Assembly (NCBI GenBank): GCA_002347705.1
Contig: DDWY01000017.1
Coordinates: 17,315-81,314 of the forward strand
DNA: 64,000 nucleotides
Origin: Anaerolineaceae bacterium UBA2274
GTDB taxonomy: Bacteria > Chloroflexota > Anaerolineae > Anaerolineales > Anaerolineaceae
Reading direction: 5' to 3'
The notes under the pieces are model-generated. The model had not been told where the DNA came from. It searched no databases and saw only the letters and a list, made by a program, of their open reading frames with translations. Below, piece by piece: positions 6,907 through 62,219 of the stretch (position 1 is its first letter; every line of letters starts with the position of its first letter). The position numbers and the translations under genes are program-made.

Positions 6907-7059
6907 TCTTGAGCGAAGTGAAGGATCTGGTTTTTAAAGACAAACTTCTTCGCAAAAGAGGCTAGAATGACAAGAACATTTAAGTTGCGCTCAACCCCTT
7001 ACACCTGGAGAAAAAAGAGAGATCTCCACAGTCGCTAACGCTCCCTCGCGATGACAAAA
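6907..7059. repeat. Three family-B palindromic units (TGTCAT(T/C)(C/G)(T/C)GAG...GCGAAGGATCT type) in mixed orientation
   Basis: tcttgagcgaagtgaaggatct (6907-6928). cttcttcgcaaaagaggctagaatgacaag (6946-6975, reverse orientation). gatctccacagtcgctaacgctccctcgcgatgacaaaa (7021-7059, reverse). Related units occur at 14.4-15.8, 37.2, 39.7-40.0, 48.6-49.0 and 57.2 kb. Confidence 0.8.
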
Positions 7060-7070
7060 GAGACTCATCT

Positions 7071-7138
7071 TCATTTGGTGGGTTGGCTTTTGATGGCTTG
7101 TCCGACACAAAACCTTCTCACGCCAACCCACCCTACAC
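7071..7138. repeat. Interspersed repeat family A, 3' half copy
   Basis: cttcatttggtgggttggcttttga...cacgccaacccaccctacacc. An 11-bp inverted repeat GGTGGGTTGGC/GCCAACCCACC flanks a ~40-nt loop. Confidence 0.9.
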
Positions 7139-7258
7139 CACTTTAGAATGATCTGGTCTTGTGTTATTAGATACTTCTCAAAAAAAGTTCAGAATGTCAG
7201 GGGTTTTCCGTCCGCCCTTTCCCCTTTTTAAGCATTCCTTGATGTTACAATTAATTCT

Positions 7259-8272
7259 ATGGATACGATTTTTCTAGGAAACTCTGTTCTGCATTGGCTG
7301 AAGGCTCTGGTGGTTTTCGCTGTGGTTCTCTTACTGCTTTTTCTTTTACGAACTTTCTGTCGCAAAAAAGTAAAACAAAATCCCAACCCAAAACTTCTCA
7401 CCCGCCTGCTCAGCCAGATCATCCTGCCAACAGCTCTGATTACGGCCATCTGGCTTGCGTCCCGCCTGCTCGAAATCTCTGAGCCAATTAACACTCTGCT
7501 TAGAGTCCTTTTGATTGCTTTGCTTACCGTCCAAATTGGTCGTTGGGCGGACTTAGGACTCAGCCACTGGGTCGATCAGCAAATTGAAAAAATGCCTGAC
7601 GACGACTACAACCGCCGTTCCTCACTGCGTGGGATTGCCATTATCGCCCGCATCCTGATATGGCTGGTAGCTGTGCTTGTCATCATCGAAAGTATTCCAA
7701 ACTTTGATATCGCCGGCATCATTGCCAGCCTGGGTATTGGGGGTATTGCCATCGGTCTCGCAGCCCAGAGCCTGGTGGCTGATTTACTTTCCAGCCTGAC
7801 CATTCACCTTGATAAACCCTTTGAACCCGGAGACTCTATCACAATAGGCGAATTTACCGGCACCGTTGAGAAAATTGGCTTGAAATCCACCAGCATTCGC
7901 AATCTTTCAGGGGAAGAACTTACTGTATCCAACTCTCAGATGCTGAAAACCCCACTCCGGAATTTTAGCCGCATGGAGGAAAGACGCGTTTCATTTACCA
8001 TCCAAATCGCCAGCAACACTTCCACTGAAAAACTCGCGCTCATTCCTGAATTGGTAGAGAAGGCCTTCGAGGGACTTGAAAACGTGCGTTTTACACGGGC
8101 CCACTTTCAAGCAGTGGCACTGACGGGTTTTGTTTTTGAGGTTGTGTATTTTGTGACATCCCCTGATTTCGCCCTTTTCGTGAAGGCGCAAAATCTCATC
8201 AATTATCGGATCTACCAGGATCTGCAAAACGAAGGGATCTACTTTAGCGTCATACCCGCAGTCCCGCTCTAA
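7259..8272 (+). CDS. MscS-family mechanosensitive ion channel
   Basis: 337 aa. N-terminal TM helices, the pore helix GIGGIAIGLAAQSLVADLLSS, and the beta-domain PFEPGDSITIGEFTGTVEKIGLKSTSIR. Confidence 0.9.
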   Translation: MDTIFLGNSVLHWLKALVVFAVVLLLLFLLRTFCRKKVKQNPNPKLLTRLLSQIILPTALITAIWLASRLLEISEPINTLLRVLLIALLTVQIGRWADLGLSHWVDQQIEKMPDDDYNRRSSLRGIAIIARILIWLVAVLVIIESIPNFDIAGIIASLGIGGIAIGLAAQSLVADLLSSLTIHLDKPFEPGDSITIGEFTGTVEKIGLKSTSIRNLSGEELTVSNSQMLKTPLRNFSRMEERRVSFTIQIASNTSTEKLALIPELVEKAFEGLENVRFTRAHFQAVALTGFVFEVVYFVTSPDFALFVKAQNLINYRIYQDLQNEGIYFSVIPAVPL

Positions 8273-16912: not shown

Positions 16913-18565
16913 TCAGCCTTTTTCAGCCAGCTTGCCTTTTATTTTCAATAAGATTGCATCCAACTCCGGCACTTTCAACAGCTTCAGCATCACGCCGTAA
17001 ACCAGCACCCCCAACATAACTCCCACAGCTAACACCAACAATTTGTTTAAGTTCCCGAACAGTGTCATCCATCCGAACAGCACCAAGCCCATCATAATGC
17101 TGCCAGTTAGAGCCAGCGCACCAGTCCGCAAGATTTGCTTCCCACCAACTCCATGTAAGCGCCGGCGCATGATCGCAAACAAAACCAGGCATTCCACCGC
17201 GGTGGCTGTAGTGTTTGCCAGCGCCAGACCTCCCAAAGGCAGCCAGCCTATCTGGCTGAAAAGCCGGGAGAAGAAAAAGGAAAGCAGAATGTTGCCCGTC
17301 ATCGCCGCGACCCCAACCAGAACCGGGGTTTTGGTGTCGTGCATGGCGTAAAAAGCGCGGCTCAACACTTCCACCAGGCTGTGCCCGGTCAGCCCAAGGG
17401 CATACCAGAGCAGCGCCCAGGCAACCATCTGGGTGGATGTGGCATCGAAGCTGCCGCGTTCGTACAAAACCCGCACCAGTGGCACACGCAGAAAGACAAG
17501 CCCAATCGTAGCAGGCAGTGCCAACAGAAGCATAACACGCACAATGCTTGAAAGAGTCTGGCGAAAGTCCTCAAATTTTCCCAGTTCCACCTGCGCTGAG
17601 AGCGTCGGCAGCGAAGCCGTGCCAGCGGACTGCGCAATCGCCGCCTGAGGCATCAACATCAGTGTAAACGCCCAGGTGAGCGCACTTGCGGATCCTGCCC
17701 CAAGCGAGAGGCTAATGATGGTGTTTGCAACAAAATTCAACTGCACGATGCCTGCCCCAAAAATCCGCGGCAGCATCAGGCGCAGCACTTTGCGCACCGG
17801 ATCGTCCCTGAAACCTGCTGCCAATTCGTAATTACGGGCAGGCAGGCGCAAGAGCGCCGGCAATTGCAGCAACAAATGCCCGGCTGCGCCAATCACGGTG
17901 CCGATCGCGAGGCGCTCGATTCCCCAGGAGGCTGGCAGCAGCCATACCCCCAGGATGATGCCAAAAGAATAGGCTGCAGGTGCCAACGCCGGCCAAAGGA
18001 AGACCTGGTGGGCGTTCAGCATGCCCATCACCAAACCGCTGATCCCAAAAATGATCACCGTTGGCAGCATGATGCGCAGCAGGCGAGCCGTCTCAGCCAC
18101 TTGCGCGGCGTTCGATTCCGGCACAAGCGCGAACAATCCGCGCTCAACCAAAAATGGCGCAAATATCCACATCAGGGTTGAAGCCAAAATCAGGACGATC
18201 AAAACCGAGTTCACCACCCCCGAAGCCAAGCGCCAGGCGCCTTTTTGATCCTTACGCGTCAAGTAACCTGTAAACATCGGGATAAAAGCTGAACCCAGAG
18301 CGCCCCCAGCCGTAAGGTTGAAGAGCAGCTCGGTCACGCGGTTGGCAGCGTTGAACGAATCGAGGGAAACACTGGTGCCAAAAGCATGCGAAACAACCAT
18401 GCCGCGTACTATCCCCACCATCGTGCTAAGAATATAAGCAATCATCACGATTCCAGCCGCGCGCGCAATCTGCCGCCCAGCCTGAGCACTCCCAGTGTCG
18501 CTTAGATCCAAGGGCTTTTGGAGTTTTTCAGGATTATTCACGCCCAGCATCCTTATTTTCTTCAT
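16913..18565 (-). CDS. murJ: Lipid II flippase MurJ (MviN)
   Basis: Polytopic MOP-family protein: IARAAGIVMIAYILSTMVGIVRGMVVSHAFG ... SRAFYAMHDTKTPV. Start uncertain. ATG 18565 has GAGG 9 nt upstream. The ORF-track start is 18613. Confidence 0.9.
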   Translation of the reverse strand: MKKIRMLGVNNPEKLQKPLDLSDTGSAQAGRQIARAAGIVMIAYILSTMVGIVRGMVVSHAFGTSVSLDSFNAANRVTELLFNLTAGGALGSAFIPMFTGYLTRKDQKGAWRLASGVVNSVLIVLILASTLMWIFAPFLVERGLFALVPESNAAQVAETARLLRIMLPTVIIFGISGLVMGMLNAHQVFLWPALAPAAYSFGIILGVWLLPASWGIERLAIGTVIGAAGHLLLQLPALLRLPARNYELAAGFRDDPVRKVLRLMLPRIFGAGIVQLNFVANTIISLSLGAGSASALTWAFTLMLMPQAAIAQSAGTASLPTLSAQVELGKFEDFRQTLSSIVRVMLLLALPATIGLVFLRVPLVRVLYERGSFDATSTQMVAWALLWYALGLTGHSLVEVLSRAFYAMHDTKTPVLVGVAAMTGNILLSFFFSRLFSQIGWLPLGGLALANTTATAVECLVLFAIMRRRLHGVGGKQILRTGALALTGSIMMGLVLFGWMTLFGNLNKLLVLAVGVMLGVLVYGVMLKLLKVPELDAILLKIKGKLAEKG

Positions 18566-20024
18566 TCCTGAAAGCCTCTTTGGCAGCCTCCCAAAGCTGA
18601 TCCATTTCCTCAAAACTCAACTGATCCACGCTTTTGCCCTTCTCTGCAGCCTTCTTCTCGATGTAGGCAAAGCGTTTGCGGAAGCGCATGTTAGTTTCGC
18701 GCAGGGCAATTTCAGGGTCAACCTTGAGCCAGCGCACCAAATTGACCACCGCGAAGAGCACATCTCCGGCTTCGGATTGTCTCTCCTCATCGGTTTGGGC
18801 GTCCCGCAGTTCGCCCAGTTCTTCATGCACTTTGGCAATGACCGGTTCGATGGTGTGCCAGTCAAATCCTACACGTTTTGCCCGGCGTTGGATCTGGTTC
18901 GCCTGCGAAAGCGCCGGCAGGCTGAGGGGGACACCATCCAGCATGCCCTTGTGACTCTCGCCATTGCTTTTGCGCTCATCCGCCTTGATCTTTTCCCAAT
19001 TGGTAAGCACATTTTCCACTGAATCCACGTTTATATCCGAAAAGACATGTGGGTGGCGCCGGACGAGCTTGGCATTGATGCCCTTCAGAACATCACTCAT
19101 GAGGAAGTCTTCGTCCTCAGTCGCAATCTGGGCATGCAAACCAATCTGCAGCAGCAGATCGCCAAGTTCTTCACGCAGGTGCTGGCTATCTTCCTGGTCC
19201 AGGGCTTCCAAGACCTCGTACGCCTCCTCCAACAGATAGGGGCGCAGGCTCAGATGGGTCTGTTCGCGGTCCCAGGGGCAGCCATCATGGCGGCGTAAGC
19301 GGGCGATGATCTGCAGGAAGTCTTCAAAAGACGTGCCCTGGCTTAAGGGCGGCAGGTACAGGCAGCTCAGCATGCCCAGGTGGACGGACTGATCAATCTC
19401 ATAAAGCGCTAACTTCTCGACGATCTCGTCTGAAGTGCCGGCGTTGTGCACCAGCATCACGGGATGCTCCTGGGGGTAAGTTGCCATGAGGGTCAGCTTG
19501 AGCTCGCTGGCTTCAAAGCTGCTTTCCAACTGCGAAATGATGGCCGGGATGGTCGGGGGAAAGGAGGGTACTTCAAGGCTGGCCAGGTGCAGCGCTTCTG
19601 CCAGCACCATCTGCGGATGCGGGTCGATTCCCAGCGCCGAACAGACCGGTTCGATGAAACTGAGGCCGTCGATCAGCCGGATTGGCAAATCGCTGGCTTC
19701 AACCGCTTTCATGAGTTCACTGACGGTCTCCTCAGCCACAAAGGGGCTGCCGGGCACCCCGTAGGTCACGCCTTGCTCGCGTCTGCCCAGTTCCATGACC
19801 TGCTGGACGATCATCTCGAGGACTTCACCGATATCATCCTTGGAATCGTAGATCTCATCAAAACTACGCACCCCTAAGCCTTCCGGCAGTCCGGCTACCG
19901 CCGGGTGGAACTTCGTCCGCAGCCAGATCTCACCACACTGCTCAAGGTGAGCCCAGGCTTCACGGGTCAGGTATTCTGCCCCTGCGGGTCCTAATCCTAC
20001 AATGGTTATTCCACGTCCAGTCAT
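18534..20024 (-). CDS. YabN-like fusion: N-terminal tetrapyrrole-methylase-fold domain + C-terminal MazG nucleoside-triphosphate pyrophosphohydrolase
   Basis: GITIVGLGPAGAEYLT at the N-terminus. Tandem MazG repeats EEAYEVLEALD...ELGDLLLQI and HEELGELRDA...EAGDVLFAVVNL. Start at ATG 20024 preceded by AAGGAAGCGG. The ORF-track start is 20048. Confidence 0.85.
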   Translation of the reverse strand: MTGRGITIVGLGPAGAEYLTREAWAHLEQCGEIWLRTKFHPAVAGLPEGLGVRSFDEIYDSKDDIGEVLEMIVQQVMELGRREQGVTYGVPGSPFVAEETVSELMKAVEASDLPIRLIDGLSFIEPVCSALGIDPHPQMVLAEALHLASLEVPSFPPTIPAIISQLESSFEASELKLTLMATYPQEHPVMLVHNAGTSDEIVEKLALYEIDQSVHLGMLSCLYLPPLSQGTSFEDFLQIIARLRRHDGCPWDREQTHLSLRPYLLEEAYEVLEALDQEDSQHLREELGDLLLQIGLHAQIATEDEDFLMSDVLKGINAKLVRRHPHVFSDINVDSVENVLTNWEKIKADERKSNGESHKGMLDGVPLSLPALSQANQIQRRAKRVGFDWHTIEPVIAKVHEELGELRDAQTDEERQSEAGDVLFAVVNLVRWLKVDPEIALRETNMRFRKRFAYIEKKAAEKGKSVDQLSFEEMDQLWEAAKEAFRNEENKDAGRE

Positions 20025-20051
20025 CAAATCCGCTTCCTTAATAAACATGCA

Positions 20052-49365: not shown

Positions 49366-50052
49366 ATGAGCTACCGCCCAAACCTCGATATTGCCAGCCT
49401 CTACGCCAGCTTTGCCTCCCCGATTGCCGAAGTCGACTGCGGCAGACTATGCGCACCCCACAATCCCTCCGGCAAACCCTTCTGCTGCGATATCTGCGTG
49501 GCAGTGCCCGTCGCATTGAAAGAGGAATGGGCTTACCTCAAACCCAACACCAAGCTCTGGCATCGCCTGCGCGGAGACGAGTGCCCCAGCGACCCCATCG
49601 ACGTGCCTAAGATGAAAGCTGAAACGCCCCATTACATGCACCTGATGGCCTGCCGCGGTCCAGAATACTGTGAGCGCGACTTTCGCACCCTCAGCTGCCG
49701 CCAGTTTCCCTTCTCCCCCTACATCACCGCAGACGATCGCTTCATTGGGCTCACCTACAATTGGGACTTCGAGCCGGTCTGTTGGGTCATCAGCAATCTC
49801 GACCAGGTCACCCCTGCCTATCGCCGCGAATTCATCAACATCTACGATCAACTCCTCTACGAATACCCCAAAGAATACGACAGCTACTATTTCCTCTCAG
49901 AGGACATGCGCGAAGTCTTCAAAAAGCGGCGGCGGCGCATCCCCATCCTCCACCGCGACGGGTTCGACTACCTTCTAAGCCCCGCCACCGACCGCCTCAC
50001 GCGCGTGGATGCCGCCCAATTCCGCAAATTTGGCCCCTACCAACAGTCCTGA
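49366..50052 (+). CDS. Cysteine-cluster protein, distantly YkgJ/UPF0153-like (putative Zn/Fe-chelating domain)
   Basis: 228 aa. CGRLCAPHNPSGKPFCCDIC and CRGPEYCERDFRTLSCRQFPFSPY resemble the CxxCxxCC ... C..RP..CR.FP pattern. No obvious SD. Tentative. Confidence 0.45.
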   Translation: MSYRPNLDIASLYASFASPIAEVDCGRLCAPHNPSGKPFCCDICVAVPVALKEEWAYLKPNTKLWHRLRGDECPSDPIDVPKMKAETPHYMHLMACRGPEYCERDFRTLSCRQFPFSPYITADDRFIGLTYNWDFEPVCWVISNLDQVTPAYRREFINIYDQLLYEYPKEYDSYYFLSEDMREVFKKRRRRIPILHRDGFDYLLSPATDRLTRVDAAQFRKFGPYQQS

Positions 50053-50174
50053 CTGCCCACCCTTAAACTGTCCATTAAATACACCCATTTTTTGTCTTAA
50101 CATTGGATTCTCACATTACCTCAAGTACAATTACAAACAAGAAGACTTCAAAAAGTTCGTCAGCGAGGAGAAAT

Positions 50175-51563
50175 ATGCCTATCAACAGCACATCAACCCT
50201 TCAGTTTAAAGCAACGCTAAATGATTCCAAGCCACCAATCTGGCGGCGCTTTACGATCCCCGCTGACAAGACCCTCCTGGACTTGCATGACGTCCTCCAG
50301 GTACTATTTGGCTGGGAAGATTACCACCTACACGAGTTTCGAATTGGACGTAAAAACTATGGCATACCTGATCCTGATGAGCATTTCGAAGACGAAATTC
50401 TGGATGACAGCAATTTTACGCTTTTCCAGGTGCTTGAAAAGGAAGGCCAAAGGTTCCCTTACCTCTACGATTTTGGTGACGGGTGGCAAATTGATCTCGT
50501 GATCGAGAAGGTGCAGGAATCCAGCGCAAAAGATAGGAAGGCAGTCTGCCTGGCGGGTGCGCGCAATGGGCCTCCTGAAGATGTGGGCGGCGTTTATGGC
50601 TACGAAGAGTTCCTGGAAGCGATTGCTGATCCTGCGCATGAGATGTATGCTGATTTAATTCAATGGATTGGAGGTCATTTTGACTCCGAAGAATTTGATA
50701 TCCAGGCGATCAACAAATCTTTGGGGCGGATTGGAAAGCCCATAGATTACTGGGAGGTTGATCCCAATCCTGAAGCTGAAAACCATTTCGGATACAAAAC
50801 AAGCTGGATCACTTCAGGCTCTAAAAAATTTAACAAAACGATCCAGGATTTGCCATTACGGCGAGATATTGTTGAAATGCTAACCTATATTCAGAATAAT
50901 AAGGTTGTGGGCACGGCAACGACTGGCAATTTCCCATTAAAAACAGTAGAAGAAATGGGTAAGCACTTCGTAGATCCGATAAAGGTGTGGTTTCCTAATG
51001 GGGAACGCCGATATAGATCTGAACTTGAGGTCGATACCCTGTACTTTTACCACGTCCTGGCAATTGCCGGACAGTTGCTAACTGGAGGCAAGGGGCGAAA
51101 ATGGCGTCTGACTGAACTCGGACATCGTTTTCTCGCGGAATCCCCCGCCTGGCAATACTGGCATCTGTTGATAACCTTTTGGACACAAACAAACTGGCTT
51201 TCGGTCGCGCGTGTCAACGTGCCTGAAGAAGGAATTTCAACTCCTTTTAAGGTTCTCCTCCTGTTTGTTTGCCAGAAACTCAGCCCAACATATGGAGTTT
51301 CCTTCGAGCGGTTTGTGGAAAATCTGGCAGAGAATTCCTACATCTCCTGGCAATCGCTATATTTTTCCGAGTATAAGGAAGATCTCGTTGAACAAATATG
51401 CATCAACCCCCTGATCTCATTTGGGATTTTTCAACCGGATTATGAACTCCGTAAACATAAATACTTTTCCAGGGAACACCTGAACAGGATCACTATAACT
51501 CAGCTCGGAGCAAGTGTTTTAAAAGCCTTCATGGAATCCATTGAAAAAGCCTCACCTGCATAA
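50175..51563 (+). CDS. pRiA4b ORF-3-like (MM3350-like, PF07929-type) domain protein with a ~290-aa uncharacterised C-terminal region
   Basis: Start at ATG 50175 (GAGGAG upstream). LQFKATLNDSKPPIWRRFTIPADKTLLDLHDVLQVLFGWEDYHLHEF ... YLYDFGDGWQIDLVIEKV ... PPEDVGGVYGYEEFLEAI. The ORF-track start is 50103. Confidence 0.75.
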   Translation: MPINSTSTLQFKATLNDSKPPIWRRFTIPADKTLLDLHDVLQVLFGWEDYHLHEFRIGRKNYGIPDPDEHFEDEILDDSNFTLFQVLEKEGQRFPYLYDFGDGWQIDLVIEKVQESSAKDRKAVCLAGARNGPPEDVGGVYGYEEFLEAIADPAHEMYADLIQWIGGHFDSEEFDIQAINKSLGRIGKPIDYWEVDPNPEAENHFGYKTSWITSGSKKFNKTIQDLPLRRDIVEMLTYIQNNKVVGTATTGNFPLKTVEEMGKHFVDPIKVWFPNGERRYRSELEVDTLYFYHVLAIAGQLLTGGKGRKWRLTELGHRFLAESPAWQYWHLLITFWTQTNWLSVARVNVPEEGISTPFKVLLLFVCQKLSPTYGVSFERFVENLAENSYISWQSLYFSEYKEDLVEQICINPLISFGIFQPDYELRKHKYFSREHLNRITITQLGASVLKAFMESIEKASPA

Positions 51564-51606
51564 TTCCGCAAGGTAAGAAACTCGTTCAAAGTTCTATTAA
51601 AAACAC

Positions 51607-51642
51607 TCCCCAGGGTCAATAATATTCCTGGGGACTTGTTTT
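51607..51642 (+). terminator. Rho-independent terminator after the pRiA4b-like gene
   Basis: tccccagg (51607-51614) / cctgggga (51627-51634): an 8-bp stem with a 12-nt loop, followed by cttgtttt. Confidence 0.6.
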
Positions 51643-51822
51643 GAAAGGTCTGCCTCCCATCGGGAGCGTCTTTTACATTTGTGCCCCAAAGCAAGTTGTC
51701 CGATCTGGATTTGCTCACTTTCTGACAGAACCCACTGCATACTGCCATACACACGTGGTAACATTATTCCGAATTTCCGACCATATCCAACCAGGGCTGC
51801 CGCACACCTGAGTGAGAGTCAA

Positions 51823-52500
51823 ATGAACCAGACACTAAAACCAAACCAACATCTGATTGTCCTTGCCGGGAATATCGGCAGCGGAAAGACTTCCCTGACC
51901 CAACAGCTCAGCCAACACTTTGGATGGGAGGCATCCTACGAATCGGTGGATAACAACCCCTATTTAGCCGATTTCTATGCGGATATGCGCGCTTGGGCCT
52001 TCCATCTTCAGATGTATTTCCTGGGCAACCGCGCCCAGGAGGTTGAAACCCTGCTTAGTTCTGGCCGCTCTGCCATCATGGATCGCAGCATTTATGAGGA
52101 TGCCCACATTTTTGTGCGCGCCTTGCACGAGATGAACAATCTTTCGGACCGGGACTATCACGCCTATTTCAAGTTATACGAACTGGTGCTCAGGCAGTTG
52201 CCAAAACCCTCGCTGCTGATCCGCCTGGTTGCGCCGGTTGAGACCCTGGTTGAGAGGATCCAGCAGCGGGCGCGTTCGATTGAAGACACGATCGACCCCG
52301 ATTACCTGCGCCTGCTCGACAGCTACTACCAGCAGTGGGCGGCTGAATACGCCGAAAGCCCCGTCCTGACGGTCAACAGCCAGCTTTTTGACTTCGTCAA
52401 CAATCCCCTTCACCTCGGGGAAATCATCGATGGGATTGAGCATTGCCTCAGCACCAACTCCAACCTGAGCTTATACGAGCCGGGTAACAGTCAAGGTTGA
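51823..52500 (+). CDS. Deoxynucleoside kinase (dAK/dGK/dCK family)
   Basis: Start at ATG 51823. LIVLAGNIGSGKTSLTQQL P-loop, NPYLADFY, DRSIYED, LIRLVAP..L.ERIQQRAR lid. The ORF-track start is 51679. Confidence 0.88.
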   Translation: MNQTLKPNQHLIVLAGNIGSGKTSLTQQLSQHFGWEASYESVDNNPYLADFYADMRAWAFHLQMYFLGNRAQEVETLLSSGRSAIMDRSIYEDAHIFVRALHEMNNLSDRDYHAYFKLYELVLRQLPKPSLLIRLVAPVETLVERIQQRARSIEDTIDPDYLRLLDSYYQQWAAEYAESPVLTVNSQLFDFVNNPLHLGEIIDGIEHCLSTNSNLSLYEPGNSQG

Positions 52501-52621
52501 GCACCTTGACCTCATTTTTCCTATAAATCATGGACTTTACAAGGTCGACTAATTATCAATAAGTAAGATTTTTGATGCTGATATCTGTCAATTATGCGAG
52601 ATCAAACAAGGATGTTGTCTG

Positions 52622-54706
52622 ATGGATAGAACACATACATTAACACTTCTAAGAAAAATGATCGGGGAAGATAAAGATTTCCGTCCCGGTCAGTGGGAAG
52701 CTATCGAAGCAGTGGCAAGCAAAAAACAGCGGACACTAGTTGTCCAACGCACAGGATGGGGAAAAAGTCTGGTTTACTTCCTCGCGACAAAATTATTACG
52801 CGAGCAAGGTTCCGGTCCCACAGTGCTCATCAGCCCATTATTGTCACTCATGCGCAATCAAATTGAAATGGCCGGAAGGATTGGCATTCGCGCATTCACG
52901 ATAAACAGCGCGAACAAGCAAGAATGGGCAGCTATTGAAGAAGCTTTAGCAAAAGATGAATGTGATTTAATACTCATTTCCCCAGAACGGTTAAATAATG
53001 AGCATTTCCTGAAAGATGTCCTTCCACAAATTTCCGGCCGGATCGGTCTTTTTGTAGTGGATGAAGCGCATTGTATCTCCGATTGGGGACATGATTTTCG
53101 TCCGGATTACCGCCGAATCGTGCGGATCGTTCAGATGCTGCCAAGAGGCATCCCCGTACTCGGAACAACCGCCACCGCCAACGACCGGGTGGTTAAGGAT
53201 GTTCAGGCTCAGTTAGGACCTGGGCTGACTGTTCATCGTGGGCCGCTAGTACGTGAATCTCTACGTTTACAAAATATCACACTCGCGAATCAAAGTGAAA
53301 GATTGGCTTGGTTAGCGGAAAATCTGCCAAAATTCAAGGGGAGCGGCATTATTTACTGTCTGACGGTTGCGGATACAGAACGGGTAACCGGCTGGTTAAA
53401 ACAAAAAGGCTTTTCTGCTGAGGCCTATCACGCTGGTGGTAATGGAACTATGGATCGACCGGCATTAGAACAGGCCTTCCTCAACAATAAAATCAAGATA
53501 TTGGTTGCTACTGTGGCATTGGGAATGGGCTTCGATAAGCCAGATATCGACTTTGTCATCCATTTTCAACGCCCCGGATCAGTTGTGGCATATTATCAGC
53601 AGGTAGGCCGTGCCGGACGAGCAGTGGAAAAGTCATACGGTATTTTGTTAAGTGGCAATGAAGATGATCAAATTCAGAACTACTTTATTGAATCAGCATT
53701 TCCAAGCATAGATGTGACAAAAGACTTACTGAAAGTACTTGAAAATAGCGAAGGATTGTCATTGTATGAAATTTTATCGAAGGTAAACATATCAAAGTCA
53801 ACGGCAGAGAAAGCCCTTAAGTTGTTGGAAGTTGATGGAATTGTTGGGCAGACATGGGATAATAAGGTGCTTTACTTCCGAACGCCAAACCCTTGGCGAC
53901 CTGATGTCGAGCGAGTAAATCGTGTGTTGGATTTACGAAGATCCGAACTCGCGCAAATGCAAGAATACGTTGATCATCAGGGTTGCTTGATGAAATTTTT
54001 ACTGAACGCATTGGATGATCCTCATCCTGCTGCTTGCGATCGCTGCGCGAATTGCAAGGGGCGAGGATTTTCCGGGGAAGTTGATCAAAAAATGGTAATT
54101 GAAGCGGAAAGTTTCCTGAAAAGCGATCAAATCATCATCCAACCGCGCGTGCTATGGCCATTTGCGTTGTTTCCAGACCAAAAGCGAAAGATTCCACTGG
54201 AGTATCAGAATACCGACGGGCGTTCATTATGTTATTATGGTGACGCGGGTTGGGGAAAACTGGTTCAATCAGGGAAATATCAGGAAGGTCATTTTAGTAA
54301 TGAATTAGTAAAAGCAGCGGCTCATTTAATCCGCGACATGTGGCAGCCCAATCCTTTTCCAGGCTGGGTTACCGCAATTCCGTCTACACGTCATCCCAAG
54401 CTCGTGGCCGAGTTTGCTCGCCGCCTGGCTGATTCACTGCAGATCCCTTTCTACCCCGTTATTGATCGGATCAGGGAAGCCCCCGAACAAAAAACCATGC
54501 AGAACAGCTCCAAGCAAGCTCATAATGTGTTCAATACAATACGGATAGTTCAAACAATCTCTCATGAGCCTGTATTATTGGTTGATGATATTATTGATTC
54601 GGGATGGACATTGACAATGGCTGGATACTTGTTGAAAAAGCAAGGGAGCGGGCTGGTTTACCCATTTACATTGGCACGAGCTACTTCAAGGAACGCAAAC
54701 GGATGA
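52622..54706 (+). CDS. RecQ-family DNA helicase fused to a C-terminal ComFC-like phosphoribosyltransferase-fold domain
   Basis: 694 aa. QRTGWGKS (Walker A), FVVDEAHCISDWGHDFRPDY, GTTATA, QQVGRAGR, zinc subdomain GCLMKF..CDRCANCKG. There is no HRDC domain. The C-terminus instead carries WVTAIPSTRHPKLVAEFARRLA, EQKTMQNSSKQAHNVFNT and the PRPP-loop-like VLLVDDIIDSGWTLT. Confidence 0.85.
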   Translation: MDRTHTLTLLRKMIGEDKDFRPGQWEAIEAVASKKQRTLVVQRTGWGKSLVYFLATKLLREQGSGPTVLISPLLSLMRNQIEMAGRIGIRAFTINSANKQEWAAIEEALAKDECDLILISPERLNNEHFLKDVLPQISGRIGLFVVDEAHCISDWGHDFRPDYRRIVRIVQMLPRGIPVLGTTATANDRVVKDVQAQLGPGLTVHRGPLVRESLRLQNITLANQSERLAWLAENLPKFKGSGIIYCLTVADTERVTGWLKQKGFSAEAYHAGGNGTMDRPALEQAFLNNKIKILVATVALGMGFDKPDIDFVIHFQRPGSVVAYYQQVGRAGRAVEKSYGILLSGNEDDQIQNYFIESAFPSIDVTKDLLKVLENSEGLSLYEILSKVNISKSTAEKALKLLEVDGIVGQTWDNKVLYFRTPNPWRPDVERVNRVLDLRRSELAQMQEYVDHQGCLMKFLLNALDDPHPAACDRCANCKGRGFSGEVDQKMVIEAESFLKSDQIIIQPRVLWPFALFPDQKRKIPLEYQNTDGRSLCYYGDAGWGKLVQSGKYQEGHFSNELVKAAAHLIRDMWQPNPFPGWVTAIPSTRHPKLVAEFARRLADSLQIPFYPVIDRIREAPEQKTMQNSSKQAHNVFNTIRIVQTISHEPVLLVDDIIDSGWTLTMAGYLLKKQGSGLVYPFTLARATSRNANG

Positions 54707-55686
54707 CACTTTCACCTGATTCTCAAACCTTATTATTGCTTTGTTCGCATCTGGGGCTTTCTTCTGCGTCTGAGTATGCACCAATGACGTTGAAAAACTG
54801 GAATCCATTAGCAAAAAAGTTGCTATCCATCTCTAAACGTCCAGCAGATTTATTAGAGCTCGATAAAGAGGAACTCAAAAATCTGCTGGAGATAACTGAA
54901 GAGGAAGCTGAACGAATCGCACACCTTCTTCAAAGAAGTGGAACCGTTGCAATTGAGTTGGAACGCCTCAACTCTTTGGGAATTGATGTGATTACCAGAG
55001 CAGATTCAGATTATCCTTTACGATACAAGCAGCGCCTAAAAGAAGCAGCTCCAACGATTCTTTTTTACGCTGGCGAGAAAGATCTTTTAGGGCAGCCCGG
55101 CATTGCTGTAGTGGGATCGCGTCATCTGGATGACGCTGGTCAAGCTTGTGCTGAATTTGTGGGCAATGCCTGTGGATTGTCCGGATTGGTATTGTATTCT
55201 GGCGGAGCAAAGGGAGTTGATTCTATCAGCATGAACGCAGCATTAACTTCAAGAGGAACTGCTGTTGGAATACTCGCTGATAGTTTGGAAAAATCTATTA
55301 GAAATCCAGAAAATCGTGATGCAATTTATCGTGGTGATTTATGTCTTGTAACCCCATATTCTCCTAATGCTCCTTTTTCAGTCGGCACAGCAATGGGTAG
55401 AAACAAATTAATTTATACCCTTGCTGATTATGCAATAGTAGTGGCAAGTGATGCAGAAAAGGGCGGCACCTGGGCTGGCGCGACCGAAGCGCTAAAATCG
55501 AAATGGCTTCCAGTTTTTGTCTTAGACCATCCCGACATGCCCGAAGGAAATAAAATGCTCCTGCAAAAGGGCGCTTTACAATTTCCCCACCCCTTTCCAG
55601 AACATCACCAGGAATTGAAATCCTGGCTGGATAAGCATACTGCAGAGATCAAATCTGATCCTTGTCAGTTGTCACTGTTTTACTGA
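54703..55686 (+). CDS. DprA/Smf-like (SLOG superfamily) DNA-processing protein
   Basis: The ATG at 54703 overlaps the recQ-like TGA (ATGA), with AAGGAA upstream. 327 aa. ADSDYPLRYKQ, PGIAVVGSRHLDDAG, LYSGGAKGVDSISMNAAL, GRNKLIYTLADYAIVVASDAEKGGTWAGA follow the DprA Rossmann pattern. The ORF-track start is 54604. Confidence 0.8.
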   Translation: MTLSPDSQTLLLLCSHLGLSSASEYAPMTLKNWNPLAKKLLSISKRPADLLELDKEELKNLLEITEEEAERIAHLLQRSGTVAIELERLNSLGIDVITRADSDYPLRYKQRLKEAAPTILFYAGEKDLLGQPGIAVVGSRHLDDAGQACAEFVGNACGLSGLVLYSGGAKGVDSISMNAALTSRGTAVGILADSLEKSIRNPENRDAIYRGDLCLVTPYSPNAPFSVGTAMGRNKLIYTLADYAIVVASDAEKGGTWAGATEALKSKWLPVFVLDHPDMPEGNKMLLQKGALQFPHPFPEHHQELKSWLDKHTAEIKSDPCQLSLFY

Positions 55687-55852
55687 ACATAAGATTGAGT
55701 CTAACAGATCCTGGGCAGGCAAAATTATGATTAATCACCCCATCCTTGTGCTTTTGTGGACGTGATGGTCACTTAACTGAGCACGGGAAGTGATCTCAGG
55801 CTCTATAAAAGCGTAGCTAAAGATCATTGGAAACCCAACAGTGAAACACAAG

Positions 55853-55886
55853 AAAAAAAACCAGAACTAATCCGGATTCAATCTGG
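55853..55886 (-). terminator. Candidate rho-independent terminator after the TM2 gene
   Basis: The minus strand reads ccagattgaatccggattagttctgg followed by TTTTTTTT (plus-strand poly-A at 55853-55860). The stem is interrupted. Confidence 0.45.
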
Positions 55887-55945
55887 ACGAATCCCCACCC
55901 CTTCTCTTTTTATGAACAATAACGATCCCCCTAAAAACAATAACC

Positions 55946-56356
55946 TTATCTACTATACATGGCGTAATATTCTCGCGCTTTGGTCTCGTTGTACCTGGCG
56001 ACTGTCCCAGAGATGCCAAATGCTTCAAAAAGCGCAATCCAGGCAGGTATGGTGGTCCAGGCAAAGAGGATGAAGAGGATACCTGCTACAGTTTGTCCAA
56101 GATAAAACTTGTGAGCCCCGAGTCCGCCCAAAAATAAAGCCAATAAGACCGCAGTTGTAGGGTTCTTCTTGACCGAATTGATTTGCAGCAAAAAAGGTGT
56201 CTGCTTGTCGGCAGGAAGCGATGTTACCATATTCATAATGTTCGCTTCGCTTTGTTGTGCAATTTCCTTGCTTTTTCCCAGGGTAAGTATCAAGGCGACT
56301 AATATACCAACAACGAGTAACACAAAGACTATTAAAATCCAGCTGCCATCTTCCAT
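55946..56356 (-). CDS. TM2 domain-containing membrane protein
   Basis: Start at ATG 56356 (GGAGGA 5 nt upstream). The TM2 signature is LLALFLGGLGAHKFYLGQTVAGILFILF. The ORF-track GTG start is 56368. Confidence 0.8.
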   Translation of the reverse strand: MEDGSWILIVFVLLVVGILVALILTLGKSKEIAQQSEANIMNMVTSLPADKQTPFLLQINSVKKNPTTAVLLALFLGGLGAHKFYLGQTVAGILFILFAWTTIPAWIALFEAFGISGTVARYNETKAREYYAMYSR

Positions 56357-56591
56357 TGCATCCTCCACCTCTGATTTGGGAATTTGCGTCGTTACATCCC
56401 CATGAATATTTGTTATATTAGCATAATTTCATCAAAAAATCAACGTTTTTTTGAGAGGATTGCAACCATATTTTGATTGACTTTTTGAAAACTTGAAAAT
56501 CACTAAAGACTCTGAGGTTTTGTATTTGCAGTCTTAGTCGCAGCCCTGCAAGGATGATCTTTTAAACATTCCCAGCTCAGTCAAGTTGCAT

Positions 56592-56624
56592 AAAAAAATC
56601 CACTGTTATGAAGTGGATTTTTTC
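56592..56624. terminator. Symmetric A-tract/stem/T-tract hairpin (bidirectional terminator-like) at the 5' break of the IS110 remnant
   Basis: aaaaaaatccact-gttatga-agtggattttttc. Confidence 0.5.
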
Positions 56625-57101
56625 AACACCCTCGAAATTCAGTGCTTGCTCCAACTTATTGAGCTACTGGAGCAACAAAGATCCCAGGTGGATGCTAAAG
56701 TAGAGCAGTTGATGAACGCAATCCCTCACCACATCATTACCATCCCAGGCATTGGGCAGGTAACTGGCGCCATGCTCCTGGCTGAAATTGGCAACATCAA
56801 TCGTTTTCCTGCTCTTGAACAACTGGTTGCCTATACTGGAATTGATGCCTCTGTCTTCAAAACCGGCCAATTTGAGGGCGATGAGACGCATATGAGCAAA
56901 CGAGGCTCGCATTACTTGCGTTATGCCTTGTGGCAAGCAGCCACTGCCTCTTTGTTGCATAACCCTGAATTGAAGCAGTATTACGATAAGAAACGCGCTG
57001 AAGGCAAGCAACATGGTGTTGCCATGGGGGCAGTTTGCCATAAACTCCTCAGCCGCATTTTTGTCATCATGAAGGAGCAAAGACCCGATGTAACCCATTA
57101 A
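56625..57101 (+). mobile_element. IS110-family transposase remnant (C-terminal Transposase_20-type half only; degraded)
   Basis: IPGIGQVTGAMLLAEIGNINRFPALEQLVAYTGIDASVFKTGQFEGDETHMSKRGSHYLRYALWQAA. There is no N-terminal DEDD/RuvC-like domain upstream. The only in-frame start is a TTG inside the hairpin. Confidence 0.8.
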
Positions 57102-57424
57102 CTTCTTTATTTTCCCCCTTGACTTCTAATAACAGGTCTGAACGAATTGAAGAATCATAATTAAGAAGTGCTTAGATCCTTCGCTGACGCTCAAGATGAC
57201 AAATAGTCGTAGGGCGGAATGCGCCTCTGTTGCGCACTCCGCCAAAACAGCGCAAGGAAGGTTTTCGATTGTCGGAGTGAGCCCGCGACAAGCTCACAAA
57301 AAGTAATATTTCCTGGCGGTCTCATTACACAGCTTCGCTGGTACTTCGTCCGACCTACGAGAAATCTTTATAAAAAATCTCCAAACCATCCGATCCTAAC
57401 GCCAACCTACCCTACGGTTTACGG

Positions 57425-58205: not shown

Positions 58206-61200
58206 TTAATGGCGTTTTCGCCGCTTTTTATTTGGGGTTTTTTCTGCAGTTGGCTTGGGTTCTGCCCCGCCGGCCGCTTTTACCGGAGCAGGCGTCGCAA
58301 GCGCGTTTTGCGCTTCGGCAGCCTTGGTCGGTCGGTAGCGGAACATGCGGCTGATTACCGTCTGACGCACCTCGGAGAGCATCTCCGTAAACAGCGTGCT
58401 CGCCTGGCTCTTATAGCGCACCAGCGGGTCGCGCTGGGCGTAAGATTCCATGCTGATCGAGACCCGCAGGGCTTCCATGCGCGTCAGATATTCCACCCAG
58501 GTCTCTGTAATTGTGCCGAGTAATAAATCGCGGTAGATGCGATTCTGAGCCTTGTCGCCCAAAACTTCCCGGACATCTTCGTGCAGAGTCTCCGGGAGCT
58601 CCTCGATGGCTAATCCCAAAATTGCTCCGAGCTGCTCTTCACCGAGCTTTTTACTCAACCCCTCCCTGGTAGCTTTTGGCAGATCGGCAAGTTTGAAGTT
58701 ATTGTTTGCCAGGTGCTGCAGCTCAAACTCCCCAAAAATTTCGGCAAGTTTCTTTTCTGCACCCTGTAAGTGCGCCAGAATATCTTCGGTAACTTTCTCT
58801 GCCGGCTGCTTCAGCAGCTGTTCCGACATCGAGAAGAGGTAATTCAGCCTCATATAAGTCTGGAAAGTTTTGCGATGCGAACGGCTATCAAAGGCGATCC
58901 GCTTGCCTTCAGTGCTCACCTGAACCAGCTGAGCGCGCGCTTTTTCATCGCTCAGCGCAGCTTGCAGCAATTCCGGATTAGCTTCCAGGTCGCGCCGCAC
59001 CTCCCCATCCGCCCCAAACAGCCGCTCCACCCGCCGATCGAGCGATTCTGCGATTTGGGAATTAATAGTTTGGCGGACTTCTGCCCATGGGAGCTGCGCC
59101 AGATCGATGGGTTTCATTCCCCAATTGTCCCCAAAGCGTTTTTCCAGAGTCAGGAGGATGCGCCGGATAGTCGTGAGTGTCACACTGGTTCTCAAAGCTT
59201 CCTTGAGCGGTTCCTTCATGCTCAGGGGGTCTTCCATCAGGCTGCGCTGCTGCGATGGTGCCATCTTCACCGGAGTCTGCACGATCTCGCCAATCTCTGC
59301 TGCCAGGTCGTGCTGCTCATCCGGGTCAAAGCTCTCCAGGTAGGCATCCAACATTTCATTGCGTTCTGCCAGTTGGGTTTTCATACTCTGCTCGCTGCGT
59401 TCAAAGAGCAGAGCCGCCCCCTCGCGTATGTGCTCGTTCTCACGCAACACGGCCTCTTTTGCCAATGCTGTGAGCTTATCCACCAGAGATTGCTCATCAC
59501 TTGGGGTGCCGAGGTTTTCCATCACCATCTTCAGGGAGTAGCTCGGATAGCTGCCAAAGTCCGTTTGGATCGTGGGTTGGATGTCCTCCAAAAAGCCCAA
59601 CAACTTCCAAGGACCTTCTACATCCTCAAGACCAGTTCGGATCCTGCTGCCAAGCTCGGTGATCAGCATTTCGCTTACGTCTTCATGCAGATCGTCCTTG
59701 GTAAAGATCTTATCCCGCTGGCTGTAAATGCGGTTCCTCTGCGCGTTCAACACATCGTCGTATTCCAGCAAATGCTTGCGCACATCAAAGTTTGCGCCTT
59801 CCACGCGCGTCTGAGACTGCTCAACCAGCCTGTTTACCAGCGATATTTCGATTGGCATGTTCTCATCGATCTTGAAGCGCTGCAGCAAACCTTCCATCTG
59901 TTGCCCGCCAAACATTCGCATCAGGTCATCGTCCAGTGCCAGGTAAAAGCGCGATGAGCCAGGGTCGCCCTGCCGGCCAGCGCGACCGCGAAGCTGGTTA
60001 TCGATGCGGCGCGCCTCGTGGCGCTCTGAGCCAACCACATGCAAGCCGCCCAGTTCGCGCACCTTCGCCATGTTTTCCATGTACACCAGGAAGCCGTCCA
60101 CAGCCTCTTGCTGGCTCTCGTCCAGCTCCGCATTCAGTGCCTTAACCGCCTCTAAGCGCTCAGGCATGGTCATGTTGTAGGGGTCAGTGTGGGTTTTTTC
60201 CACCAGCACCTGGTTCACGCGCGAGAGCAGGCTTTCAGACAGCTCACCCCCCAGCTTGATGTCCACACCGCGGCCAGCCATGTTGGTGGCAATCGTCACC
60301 GCCCCGAACGCGCCCGCGCCGGCGATGATGAGCGATTCTTCGGTATGTTTGCGCGCGTTCAAAACCTGGTGCGGAACGCCGCTGTCAAACAAAGCCCTCA
60401 GCCGCTCCCAATCGCTTTCCTCCAACTTCAGCAGTGCCAGCAGATTCGCTTTGTTGCTTTCATCTGCCAGGTCGAGCGCGGTCATGCCGTTTTGCATTCC
60501 AAGCCGGCGCAATTCCGGCATGCGCAGCTTGTCCAATGGTTCACTTAAAACTCTCAATTCGGGTTGATCCACAAAATCGGCTTCGTTGAGCCCCTTGGTT
60601 TTGAACCATGCCTGGCGGATCAGATTCACTTGCAGCAGTCGCCGCACCATATCTGAGCCCAGTCGCTCCGATAGCCGCTCGGAGTTCTCCACTGAGGTGG
60701 TGCCCACCAACTGCGGTCTTCCAATCACGTGATAGCGCAAGATCTCCAGCACAATCGCGCGCACTTTGCCTTCCGTGGTGCGGTAAATTACATCAGGATA
60801 ATCCTTGCGCTTGTAGAACAGGGGCTTTTTATAAGGATCGGACTCGGCATAGTAGTAGGTGTACTTGTACCCCTCTTCGTCCTTGGCTTCCTCATCGTTC
60901 AGGCCTGAGTCCGGGCGCATTGCCTGGTATTCAAGGTTGGTCGGGATCGCAAGCACGTCCAGTCCATAGATCCGGAAGAATTCCTCTTTTTCAGTGAGGG
61001 CGGTACCCGTCATGCCAGCCAGTTTTTTATACATGCGGAAGTAGTTCTGGATGGTGATGGTGGCATGCGTGATATTCTCCGCCTGCACCTTCACGCCTTC
61101 CTTGGCTTCCACTGCCTGGTGCAGCCCGTCTGACCAGCGCCTTCCGGGCATCATGCGGCCGGTGAACTCGTCCACGATGATGACTTCACCGTTCTGGACG

Positions 61201-62219
61201 ATGTATTCCTTATCCCGGCGGAAGAGGAATCTTGCCCTCAGGGACTGCTCCAGGAAGCCCATCAAGCGCGCCTGCTCGGGGTTGATATCTTCAGGTCGCT
61301 CAGGGTCCGAAAGCGGTTCACCGAGCATCTCTTCCACGTGGGCGATGCCGACCTCCGTCAGGCTCACGGTCTGATCTTTTTCGGCGACTTCATAATCCTC
61401 GGGGTTAAGCGCCTTCACTATCTGCGCCATACGGATGTAGTTCTCCGAATCCTCATGCGAAGGACCAGAAATGATCAGCGGCGTTCGTGCCTCATCGATC
61501 AGGATATTGTCAACTTCATCGATGATGGCGAAATGATGGGGGCGCTGAACGCGCTGCTCCCAGCGCATGGTGATATTGTCGCGCAGGTAGTCAAAACCGA
61601 ACTCGCTGTTGGTTCCATAGGTGATGTCCGCCAGGTAGGCTTGCTTGCGGGGCACCGGTCTGAGCAGATCGGTAGCCTCGGCTAAGGATCGCTCGGTGGG
61701 ATCGAAGATGAAAGCCCGCTCGTTGCCTTCCGCGCTGCCCGCAGACTGGAGTACGCCCACACTCAAACCCAGCATACCAAAGATTGCGCCCATCCAACGA
61801 CCGTCGCGCCTCGCCAGGTAATCATTGACCGTGATCAGGTGTGCGCCTTTGCCCTCCAGCGCGTTGAGGTAGAGCGGCAGCGTGGCTGAGAGGGTCTTGC
61901 CCTCGCCAGTTCGCAGTTCCGAGATGCCCCCCTGGTGCAGGTTAATGCCGCAGATTATCTGGACGTCGTAGTGGCGCTGCCCCAAGACACGCTTGCCGGC
62001 TTCACGCACGGTCGCGAAGGCTTCCGGCAGGAGTTCGTCGAGCGTCTCGCCCTTAGCCAGGCGCGCTTTAAACTCAAGCGTCTTGGCTCCGAGCTCCTCA
62101 TCACTCAATTTCTCAAATTCTGCTTCGAGAGCGTTGATCTGGTCTACAATTATTACCAGCTGGTCTATTTTCTTTTTATGCGGATCTCCATTGAAGATCT
62201 GCCCGAGTTTTTTAAACAT
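58206..62219 (-). CDS. secA: Preprotein translocase ATPase SecA, unusually long (1337 aa)
   Basis: ELRTGEGKTL (Walker A), IIDEVDNILIDEARTPLIISG, VTIATNMAGRGVDIKLGG, ERHEARRIDNQLRGRAGRQGDPGSSRFYL, SYAQRDPLVRYK. There are extra segments in NBD2 and in the helical-wing region. Confidence 0.96.
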   Translation of the reverse strand: MFKKLGQIFNGDPHKKKIDQLVIIVDQINALEAEFEKLSDEELGAKTLEFKARLAKGETLDELLPEAFATVREAGKRVLGQRHYDVQIICGINLHQGGISELRTGEGKTLSATLPLYLNALEGKGAHLITVNDYLARRDGRWMGAIFGMLGLSVGVLQSAGSAEGNERAFIFDPTERSLAEATDLLRPVPRKQAYLADITYGTNSEFGFDYLRDNITMRWEQRVQRPHHFAIIDEVDNILIDEARTPLIISGPSHEDSENYIRMAQIVKALNPEDYEVAEKDQTVSLTEVGIAHVEEMLGEPLSDPERPEDINPEQARLMGFLEQSLRARFLFRRDKEYIVQNGEVIIVDEFTGRMMPGRRWSDGLHQAVEAKEGVKVQAENITHATITIQNYFRMYKKLAGMTGTALTEKEEFFRIYGLDVLAIPTNLEYQAMRPDSGLNDEEAKDEEGYKYTYYYAESDPYKKPLFYKRKDYPDVIYRTTEGKVRAIVLEILRYHVIGRPQLVGTTSVENSERLSERLGSDMVRRLLQVNLIRQAWFKTKGLNEADFVDQPELRVLSEPLDKLRMPELRRLGMQNGMTALDLADESNKANLLALLKLEESDWERLRALFDSGVPHQVLNARKHTEESLIIAGAGAFGAVTIATNMAGRGVDIKLGGELSESLLSRVNQVLVEKTHTDPYNMTMPERLEAVKALNAELDESQQEAVDGFLVYMENMAKVRELGGLHVVGSERHEARRIDNQLRGRAGRQGDPGSSRFYLALDDDLMRMFGGQQMEGLLQRFKIDENMPIEISLVNRLVEQSQTRVEGANFDVRKHLLEYDDVLNAQRNRIYSQRDKIFTKDDLHEDVSEMLITELGSRIRTGLEDVEGPWKLLGFLEDIQPTIQTDFGSYPSYSLKMVMENLGTPSDEQSLVDKLTALAKEAVLRENEHIREGAALLFERSEQSMKTQLAERNEMLDAYLESFDPDEQHDLAAEIGEIVQTPVKMAPSQQRSLMEDPLSMKEPLKEALRTSVTLTTIRRILLTLEKRFGDNWGMKPIDLAQLPWAEVRQTINSQIAESLDRRVERLFGADGEVRRDLEANPELLQAALSDEKARAQLVQVSTEGKRIAFDSRSHRKTFQTYMRLNYLFSMSEQLLKQPAEKVTEDILAHLQGAEKKLAEIFGEFELQHLANNNFKLADLPKATREGLSKKLGEEQLGAILGLAIEELPETLHEDVREVLGDKAQNRIYRDLLLGTITETWVEYLTRMEALRVSISMESYAQRDPLVRYKSQASTLFTEMLSEVRQTVISRMFRYRPTKAAEAQNALATPAPVKAAGGAEPKPTAEKTPNKKRRKRH

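Follow-up and report, generated by a model that had tools for sequence, protein, structure and literature searches.

RecQ-like helicases that end in a phosphoribosyltransferase (PRTase) domain are known from earlier work under the names RqlH and PsyrT. As described by Ordonez et al. 2012 (PMC3378886), RqlH is a 691-aa RecQ-like helicase with ATPase, zinc and ComF-like domains and no HRDC; the hallmark of the RqlH clade is a linker of ~90 aa between the ATPase and the four-cysteine zinc domain, and the C-terminal ComF-like domain bears PRTase motifs. Residues 1-505 of M. smegmatis RqlH possess 3'-5' single-stranded DNA (ssDNA) translocase and helicase activity, the ComF-like domain being dispensable for the motor, and the Chloroflexi are among the phyla listed as having RqlH (PMC3378886). 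Together with the DprA-like protein RqlI the helicase forms the toxin-antitoxin (TA) pair PsyrTA (= RqlHI), reported by Sberro 2013 (as cited) and by Russell & Mulvey 2015 (PMC4670107). The pair of genes analysed here lies in a stretch of 64,000 nucleotides, referred to as the window, of contig DDWY01000017.1 from Anaerolineaceae bacterium UBA2274. The first gene encodes a protein in which a RecQ-like helicase continues into a PRTase domain, the second a DprA-like protein, and the pair is very probably, as judged from its sequence and by analogy to the studied homologues, a PsyrTA toxin-antitoxin and anti-phage module that was horizontally acquired into the chromosome of an Anaerolineae-type bacterium.

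In E. coli, RqlH without RqlI provokes the SOS response, filamentation and growth arrest, effects that require the PRTase domain and the aspartate of its phosphoribosyl pyrophosphate (PRPP) pocket; the exchange D663A abolishes toxicity, and the PRTase domain is the toxic module of the protein (PMC4670107). RqlI shares the operon with RqlH, physically binds it and neutralises it, and RqlI 1-320, which lacks the C-terminal helix-turn-helix (HTH), is fully active while N-terminal deletions are inactive (PMC4670107). The same study found rqlH always before rqlI, mostly overlapping, with RqlH alone in most Gram-positive bacteria, and already discussed the parallel to ComFA, ComFC and DprA. Millman et al. 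2022 (bioRxiv 10.1101/2022.05.11.491447) count PsyrTA, equated with RqlHI by reference to Sberro 2013, among the phage-protective TA pairs; the transplanted system protects against phages, and a psyrA deletion was unobtainable, for which toxicity was suggested as a possible reason. Rousset et al. 2022 (PMC9122126) present shosTA, syrTA and rqlHI as TA systems with DprA-homologue antitoxins. Of these, ShosTA has been solved: its toxin depends on PRPP binding, its DprA-like antitoxin binds ssDNA and RecA, and T7 Gp0.7 acts as a trigger via shut-off of protein synthesis. In the collection of papers searched, no later work centres on how PsyrTA functions. The first-pass annotation of the window, which knew of no functional description of a RecQ-PRTase fusion paired with DprA, was thus wrong on this point, given the reports on RqlH from 2012, on PsyrTA/RqlHI from 2013 and 2015 and on phage defence from 2022. 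It cited a DprA plus PRTase system from Rousset et al. 2022, and this paper names rqlHI alongside.

Both proteins of the window are recognised by the corresponding PADLOC models over most of their length. The PsyrT model (PDLC03928) matches aa 4-690 of the helicase-PRTase protein with profile positions 6-687 of 689 (943 bits, E 1.8e-284), and the PsyrA model (PDLC03927) matches aa 1-314 of the DprA-like protein with positions 1-311 of 398 (357 bits, E 2.4e-107). PsyrT is 48% identical to RqlH of E. coli Nissle in full length (aa 1-691) and PsyrA 39% identical to E. coli RqlI in aa 1-291. Residues K48, D147 and D656 of PsyrT correspond to K49, D148 and D663, which have been tested experimentally in the E. 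coli and M. smegmatis proteins. By its sequence PsyrT belongs to the RqlH clade in full length, and its helicase, zinc and PRPP-binding motifs are intact. The pair is an ordinary member of a system that has been described and characterised and is already contained in defence-finder tools; it is not new.

Models of related families fit less well. PsyrT passes the NCBIfam recQ_fam cut-off (268 bits, cut-off 220) and stays below that of the recQ equivalog TIGR01389 (303 bits, cut-off 640), just as PsyrA stays below that of the dprA equivalog TIGR00732 (87.6 bits, cut-off 191). Membership in ShosTA was rejected, as the toxin carries a RecQ-like helicase and as the PADLOC ShosA model reaches 96 bits (E 5e-28) with PsyrA, far below the 357 bits of the PsyrA model. 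A stand-alone ComFC/GntX protein of ~200-250 aa was dismissed because the domain is fused to a helicase and has the fold alone in common with that family; the GntX/ComF model NF008616 gives 23.9 bits at a cut-off of 304. DpdF, the helicase of the Dpd system, was discarded on account of partial coverage, a score of 155 bits with the DpdF equivalog NF041063 (cut-off 550) and the absence of dpd genes nearby. Several PADLOC models labelled DpdF match PsyrT strongly, and the DpdF models PDLC02866 and PDLC02869 match the zinc/PRTase C-terminus only (aa 457-685 and 620-690, respectively). These models seem to share ground with RqlH-type proteins, and in automated annotation confusing Dpd cross-hits could result.

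Table 1. Position in the window, strand and third-codon-position GC content (GC3) of the psyrTA features and of the surrounding genes. ORF, open reading frame; IS, insertion sequence.
Feature	Position	Strand	GC3	Remarks
psyrT / rqlH, toxin	52622-54706	+	0.42	694-aa RecQ-like helicase fused to PRTase domain; ORF and PADLOC PsyrT match
RecQ-like SF2 ATPase/helicase domain	52622-53671 (aa 1-~350)	+		Walker A K48, DEAH D147; Pfam, NCBIfam, PDB
RqlH-specific linker	53672-53932 (aa ~351-437)	+		weak winged-helix-like Pfam matches
RecQ-type four-cysteine zinc-binding module	53933-54058 (aa 438-479)	+		C455, C472, C475, C478
C-terminal ComF-like type I PRTase domain	54059-54703 (aa 480-694)	+		PRPP loop VLLVDDIIDSGWT; Pfam, AlphaFold2, Foldseek
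ATGA stop/start overlap psyrT-psyrA	54703-54706	+		read in sequence (cggATGAcac)
psyrA / rqlI, antitoxin, short form without C-terminal extension	54703-55686	+	0.34	327-aa DprA-like protein; PADLOC PsyrA, Pfam
Context patch of low GC	50001-57400			PRiA4_ORF3 gene, dNK gene, psyrTA, TM2 gene, IS110-family remnant
Tetrapyrrole-methylase-like domain + MazG nucleotide pyrophosphohydrolase fusion	18534-20048	-		
Cysteine-rich ORF	49366-50052	+	0.75	228 aa
PRiA4_ORF3 protein	50103-51563	+	0.48	486 aa (462 aa as called elsewhere); E 2.4e-62
Deoxynucleoside kinase dNK	51679-52500	+	0.69	E 2.3e-50
Terminator-like hairpin	52490-52510			with T-run, at dNK 3' end
TM2-domain small membrane protein	55946-56368	-	0.49	between psyrA and IS remnant
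IS110-family transposase remnant	56586-57101	+		171-aa ORF
SecA	58206-62219	-	0.68	1337 aa
SurE			0.69	

The four-part architecture of PsyrT (Table 1) is delineated by Pfam matches to DEAD (aa 21-193), Helicase_C (aa 233-334), RecQ_Zn_bind (aa 438-479; 26.9 bits at a cut-off of 25) and Pribosyltran (aa 597-676), and neither HRDC nor another additional domain gives a Pfam match in the 694-aa protein. Between the end of Helicase_C at aa 334 and the start of RecQ_Zn_bind at aa 438, the MarR, HTH_11 and IclR models match aa 363-410 weakly and below threshold. In an alignment of the family (16 homologues, 68-84% identity) the Walker A motif GWGKS (K48), the DEAH box (D147/E148/H150), the adjoining segment CISDWGHDFRPDY (aa 151-163), the cysteines of the zinc module and, in the PRTase module, the acidic PRPP loop VLLVDDIIDSGWT (VDDIIDSGWT; D655/D656/D659) are invariant. 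The RecQ core with these helicase motifs and the zinc subdomain, as well as the lack of HRDC, had been noticed in the first-pass annotation and are found as described there. A sequence search of the PDB returns RecQ-family cores for the N-terminal half of PsyrT alone (best matches e.g. 1oyw, E 7e-56) and nothing for the PRTase half. An AAGGA element resembling a Shine-Dalgarno sequence is located ~10 nt 5' of the psyrT ATG at 52622.

For the PRTase module (aa 480-694) an AlphaFold2 model was built from 53 diverse homologous sequences, with a mean predicted local distance difference test score (pLDDT) of 90.6 and a predicted template modelling score (pTM) of 0.87. Against solved structures, Foldseek places H. 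pylori ComF (7p0h, E 2.4e-6) at the top, followed by ShosT (8zvd, 8zvb, 8zvc) and then by many adenine and other type I phosphoribosyltransferases. As the best matches are ComF, ShosT and adenine phosphoribosyltransferases, the label of a ComFC-like PRTase, originally given on the basis of sequence patterns and proposed for a fold check, is supported. Sequences related to this domain form 1537 clusters (50% identity) at E <= 0.001 and 203 at E <= 1e-30, and among the full-length members helicase fusions of ~690 aa make up the majority.

The downstream gene is of the DprA type, as had been recognised from the sequence: Pfam DNA_processg_A matches aa 90-291 of the 327-aa product (E 9.9e-35), and a PDB sequence search matches solved DprA structures as well as ShosA. 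The structure model of PsyrA is of moderate confidence (pLDDT 68), so that its top Foldseek matches, DprA of S. pneumoniae and R. palustris (3uqz/3maj) and ShosA of E. coli (8zva), do no more than back up what the Pfam and PDB sequence searches show. The psyrT TGA and the psyrA ATG overlap by 4 nt, the ATGA reported earlier being confirmed by reading the sequence, and an AAGGAA Shine-Dalgarno-like element precedes the psyrA ATG by ~10 nt. An earlier in-frame ATG at 54604, which would give 360 aa, was rejected in favour of the start at 54703, because the latter places residue 1 on position 1 of the PADLOC PsyrA profile, its methionine aligns with that yielding the published 400-aa E. coli RqlI, and the form on record in the protein collection is the 327-aa and not the 360-aa product.

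PsyrA ends at aa 327 and is thus devoid of the C-terminal extension (aa ~320-400 of E. coli RqlI) which harbors the HTH. The 120 best matching clusters of this short antitoxin are 70-97% identical to it, nearly all 326-327 aa long and conserved to the last residues. Among 53 pairs examined, the partners fall into two length classes with none between them: 23 loci with 309-364 aa, taking in all close relatives of the window pair, and 30 loci with 405-485 aa, taking in the enterobacterial and Pseudomonas partners. With 23 of the 53 partners short and their ends conserved, the short antitoxin is regarded as a natural variant, and the idea that the adjacent IS remnant had cut the gene short was rejected in view of this large conserved class.

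The pairing and the gene order are conserved across phyla. A homologue scan with one genome per species yielded 80 loci with full-length relatives of 45-77% identity in Chloroflexota, Actinomycetota, Pseudomonadota, Cyanobacteria, Desulfobacterota, Spirochaetota, Verrucomicrobiota, Acidobacteriota, others and one haloarchaeon. Seventy-two loci are informative, having at least 1.2 kb of downstream sequence. In 55 of them the helicase gene is followed immediately, on its own strand, by a gene for a homologue of the DprA-like protein, which answers the question, raised with the original annotation, of whether such a gene is a conserved neighbour; in one more it is located ~2.9 kb upstream, and in 16, mostly Actinomycetota plus Halorubrum, it is missing. 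The junction measures -4 to +17 nt in 49 of the 53 pairs and is the identical 4-nt overlap in 14, start codons having been picked heuristically. The known split holds, most non-actinobacterial RqlH genes being partnered and many actinobacterial ones not.

Individual loci depart from the common layout. In a Chloroflexota metagenome-assembled genome (MAG; locus L060) the sole DprA-like homologue, more divergent at 31% identity, is found just upstream of the helicase (5049-5999 and 6001-8067, respectively), a gene order that breaks the rule of rqlH always being first. Full-length RqlH-type fusions occur in haloarchaea both on a chromosome (L073, Halorubrum cibi) and on plasmids (H12, H14, H15), and for the Halorubrum cibi locus no DprA-like partner is detectable within 6 kb downstream. 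In one relative with an 83% identical helicase, a 69-aa HNH-domain gene (L087, 7792-8001; L088, 60-269) abuts the psyrT start; this gene is absent from the window.

A DNA search of 5426 complete E. coli genomes detects the homologous locus in 1671 (31%), and with this partial presence the E. coli copy is accessory. In E. coli Nissle 1917 it resides between gntU and yhgN, where the annotation gives a 'RecQ family ATP-dependent DNA helicase' and, overlapping its end, a 'DNA-processing protein DprA'. Full-length homologues are also present on a few plasmids (12 records), among them an E. coli plasmid with the pair and some haloarchaeal plasmids. A search of a phage collection returned RecQ-core matches only and no full-length match.

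The pair is situated in the lowest-GC stretch of the window, within a patch whose GC content is 0.456 compared with 0.522 in the rest, and the GC3 values of psyrT and psyrA set them apart from secA, surE and dNK (Table 1). The remaining window represents an ordinary chromosome with SecY, MurJ, XseA, proteases, FeoAB, SurE and SecA. In relatives with a 75-83% identical helicase the pair is embedded in unrelated neighbourhoods, namely beside a kdp operon, beside surE and sugar-modification genes, or beside an ftsX-type transporter gene. The foreign-looking GC3, the variable neighbourhoods, the IS110 remnant and the plasmid copies together argue for a small, horizontally mobile cassette that was acquired by transfer, and the earlier remark on a compositionally patchy region beside an IS110 remnant agrees with the low-GC patch and the Transposase_20 domain found there. 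MAG GCA_002412845.1 encodes an identical protein on its contig DHVV01000068.1, as do several metagenome assemblies; among named relatives, MAGs of Anaerolineaceae and Anaerolineae come closest.

The most serious rival to the assignment as a PsyrTA module, though improbable, is a housekeeping role in DNA repair and recombination, in which RqlH would do the work of RecQ, a proposal made for mycobacteria, with the DprA-like partner as its cofactor or regulator. RqlH has true 3'-5' helicase activity and RecQ is missing from the mycobacteria that possess RqlH (PMC3378886), a cooperative beneficial function on DNA has been proposed by Russell & Mulvey (PMC4670107), and no second recQ or dprA is found within the window, although one window of 64 kb is uninformative about the remaining genome. 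A housekeeping helicase is, however, difficult to reconcile with a GC3 of 0.34-0.42 next to ~0.69 in the flanking housekeeping genes, with neighbours that differ among close relatives, with the accessory distribution in E. coli, with scores below the recQ and dprA equivalog cut-offs and with the experimental record of the family as toxin-antitoxin and phage-defensive. The first-pass annotation, which preferred a conflict system or mobile-element module to a housekeeping RecQ, is accordingly upheld, backed by the PADLOC PsyrT and PsyrA matches, the sub-cut-off recQ and dprA scores, the foreign GC3 and the variable neighbourhoods. Some points nevertheless speak against a TA module. Partnerless RqlH homologues, which also fit the housekeeping role, are common (16 of 72 loci, mostly Actinomycetota), implying that some hosts carry RqlH proteins that do not act as toxins; a function in DNA repair has been suggested for RqlH. 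About 90 positions of the PADLOC PsyrA profile (312-398) are left unmatched by the antitoxin. There is no recognisable defence island, as the +/-10 kb around the pair hold only FeoAB, a protease, dNK, SurE and SecA, and no sigma-70-like promoter is seen upstream of psyrT in a scan that covered the sigma-70 type only and is uninformative for this phylum.

Decay of the cassette into a non-functional remnant beside the IS remnant is even less likely. The truncated IS110 transposase lies 0.9 kb downstream of the pair and the antitoxin falls short of the full PADLOC profile, but both ORFs are intact with all catalytic motifs conserved, the 326-327-aa form of the antitoxin is common to well over a hundred clusters and conserved to its last residues, antitoxins occur naturally in two lengths, the short one at 23 loci and the long one at 30, and E. 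coli RqlI 1-320 is fully active (PMC4670107). A natural-transformation module, in which a fused ComFA/ComFC analogue would handle incoming ssDNA together with DprA during competence, can hardly be maintained. Such an analogy has been raised in the literature (PMC3378886, PMC4670107), and both the best structural match of the C-terminal domain, H. pylori ComF, and the DprA fold of the partner are in line with it. The scores, on the other hand, are far under the respective cut-offs (GntX/ComF 23.9 versus 304 bits, DprA 87.6 versus 191 bits), the helicase belongs to the RecQ family and not to the ComFA type, the neighbourhood holds no com or pilus genes, and homologues are found in non-competent E. 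coli, where a role in transformation was undetectable (PMC4670107). Overall, the anatomy and the conflict-system inference of the original interpretation hold, while its premise of an undescribed pair does not.

For the PsyrTA module a course of events may be outlined. A single transcript would yield PsyrT and PsyrA at a constant ratio, and within the complex of the two proteins the PRTase domain would be kept inactive by PsyrA jointly with the helicase domain. Upon phage infection, either the supply of antitoxin would fail, or phage ssDNA or replication intermediates would engage the DprA-like or helicase parts. The freed PRTase domain might then use PRPP and damage nucleotide or DNA metabolism, whereby replication would halt and the phage cycle be aborted. 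Toxicity, neutralisation and phage protection of the window pair are inferred from the experiments on its homologues, namely the E. coli and P. syringae pairs and the donor systems, and by analogy ShosTA is the nearest guide to the substrate and the trigger of the family. More speculatively, for the family rather than for this locus in particular, and with considerable doubt, the RecQ-like motor might place the PRTase on ssDNA and lead to phosphoribosylation of bases or nucleotides in or at DNA, the DprA-like partner might sense phage ssDNA, and the short antitoxin might define a subtype that differs in its regulation or in its trigger. The idea of a motor-delivered PRTase acting on DNA is already a speculation of Russell & Mulvey (PMC4670107).

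Several neighbouring genes deserve mention (Table 1). The kinase gene dNK shares the strand of psyrT and ends 120 nt before it. It was rejected as a component of the system on the grounds of its native-like GC3, the hairpin at its 3' end and its not adjoining the pair in relatives, and it is probably unrelated to psyrTA. The PRiA4_ORF3 protein encoded further upstream has no PADLOC match, and its gene may have arrived with the psyrTA cassette or separately. Downstream of psyrA, the TM2 gene is not conserved beside the pair in relatives. The IS110-family remnant retains the C-terminal Transposase_20 domain only, the N-terminal catalytic domain being missing. SecA is unusually long, with all four SecA Pfam domains reported; a typical bacterial SecA comprises ~900 aa. 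The cysteine-rich ORF gives no Pfam match. At a larger distance, the fusion of a tetrapyrrole-methylase-like domain with MazG displays what we take to be the known YabN-like architecture.

A genome scan should report the locus under the name PsyrTA/RqlHI, without a flag of novelty. The small additions to what is known are an example of PsyrTA in the chromosome of an uncultured Anaerolineae-type bacterium, whose composition clearly points to horizontal acquisition of the pair, and, as described above, the two length classes of DprA-like antitoxins and the split between partnered and partnerless RqlH genes.

Compared with canonical RecQ, PsyrT has the SF2 RecQ ATPase core and a zinc-binding module in common, while HRDC is absent, a linker of ~90 aa precedes the zinc module and a PRTase domain is added. 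The trio of ComFA, ComFC and DprA likewise combines a helicase, the ComF-type PRTase fold and the DprA fold, all of them ssDNA-related. In that case, however, they are separate proteins and the helicase is ComFA, whereas in the window a RecQ-like helicase is fused to the PRTase, a competence gene context is lacking, and the phenotype of the PsyrTA family is toxicity and defence instead of DNA uptake. ShosTA, the DprA plus PRTase system of Rousset et al. 2022, resembles the pair in its PRPP-dependent PRTase-fold toxin, its DprA-like antitoxin and its anti-phage activity. It differs in that ShosT carries no helicase, and in that ShosA neutralises without binding the toxin, via ssDNA and RecA, whereas RqlI binds RqlH directly. 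M. smegmatis RqlH, the founding member of the clade, is identical to PsyrT in its four-part architecture, but RqlI partners are lacking for the RqlH genes of mycobacteria and of most actinobacteria, contrary to the gene of the window. The closest correspondence is with PsyrTA/RqlHI itself. The antitoxin of the window differs from that of the described system by its length of 327 instead of 400 aa, the C-terminal HTH-containing extension being absent, and the host is a Chloroflexota MAG. At the same time, the domain order of the toxin and its length of ~690 aa, the experimentally tested catalytic residues, the gene order with overlapping or abutting stop and start codons, and an antitoxin with a DprA fold and the N-terminal region required for activity are all the same in the window pair.

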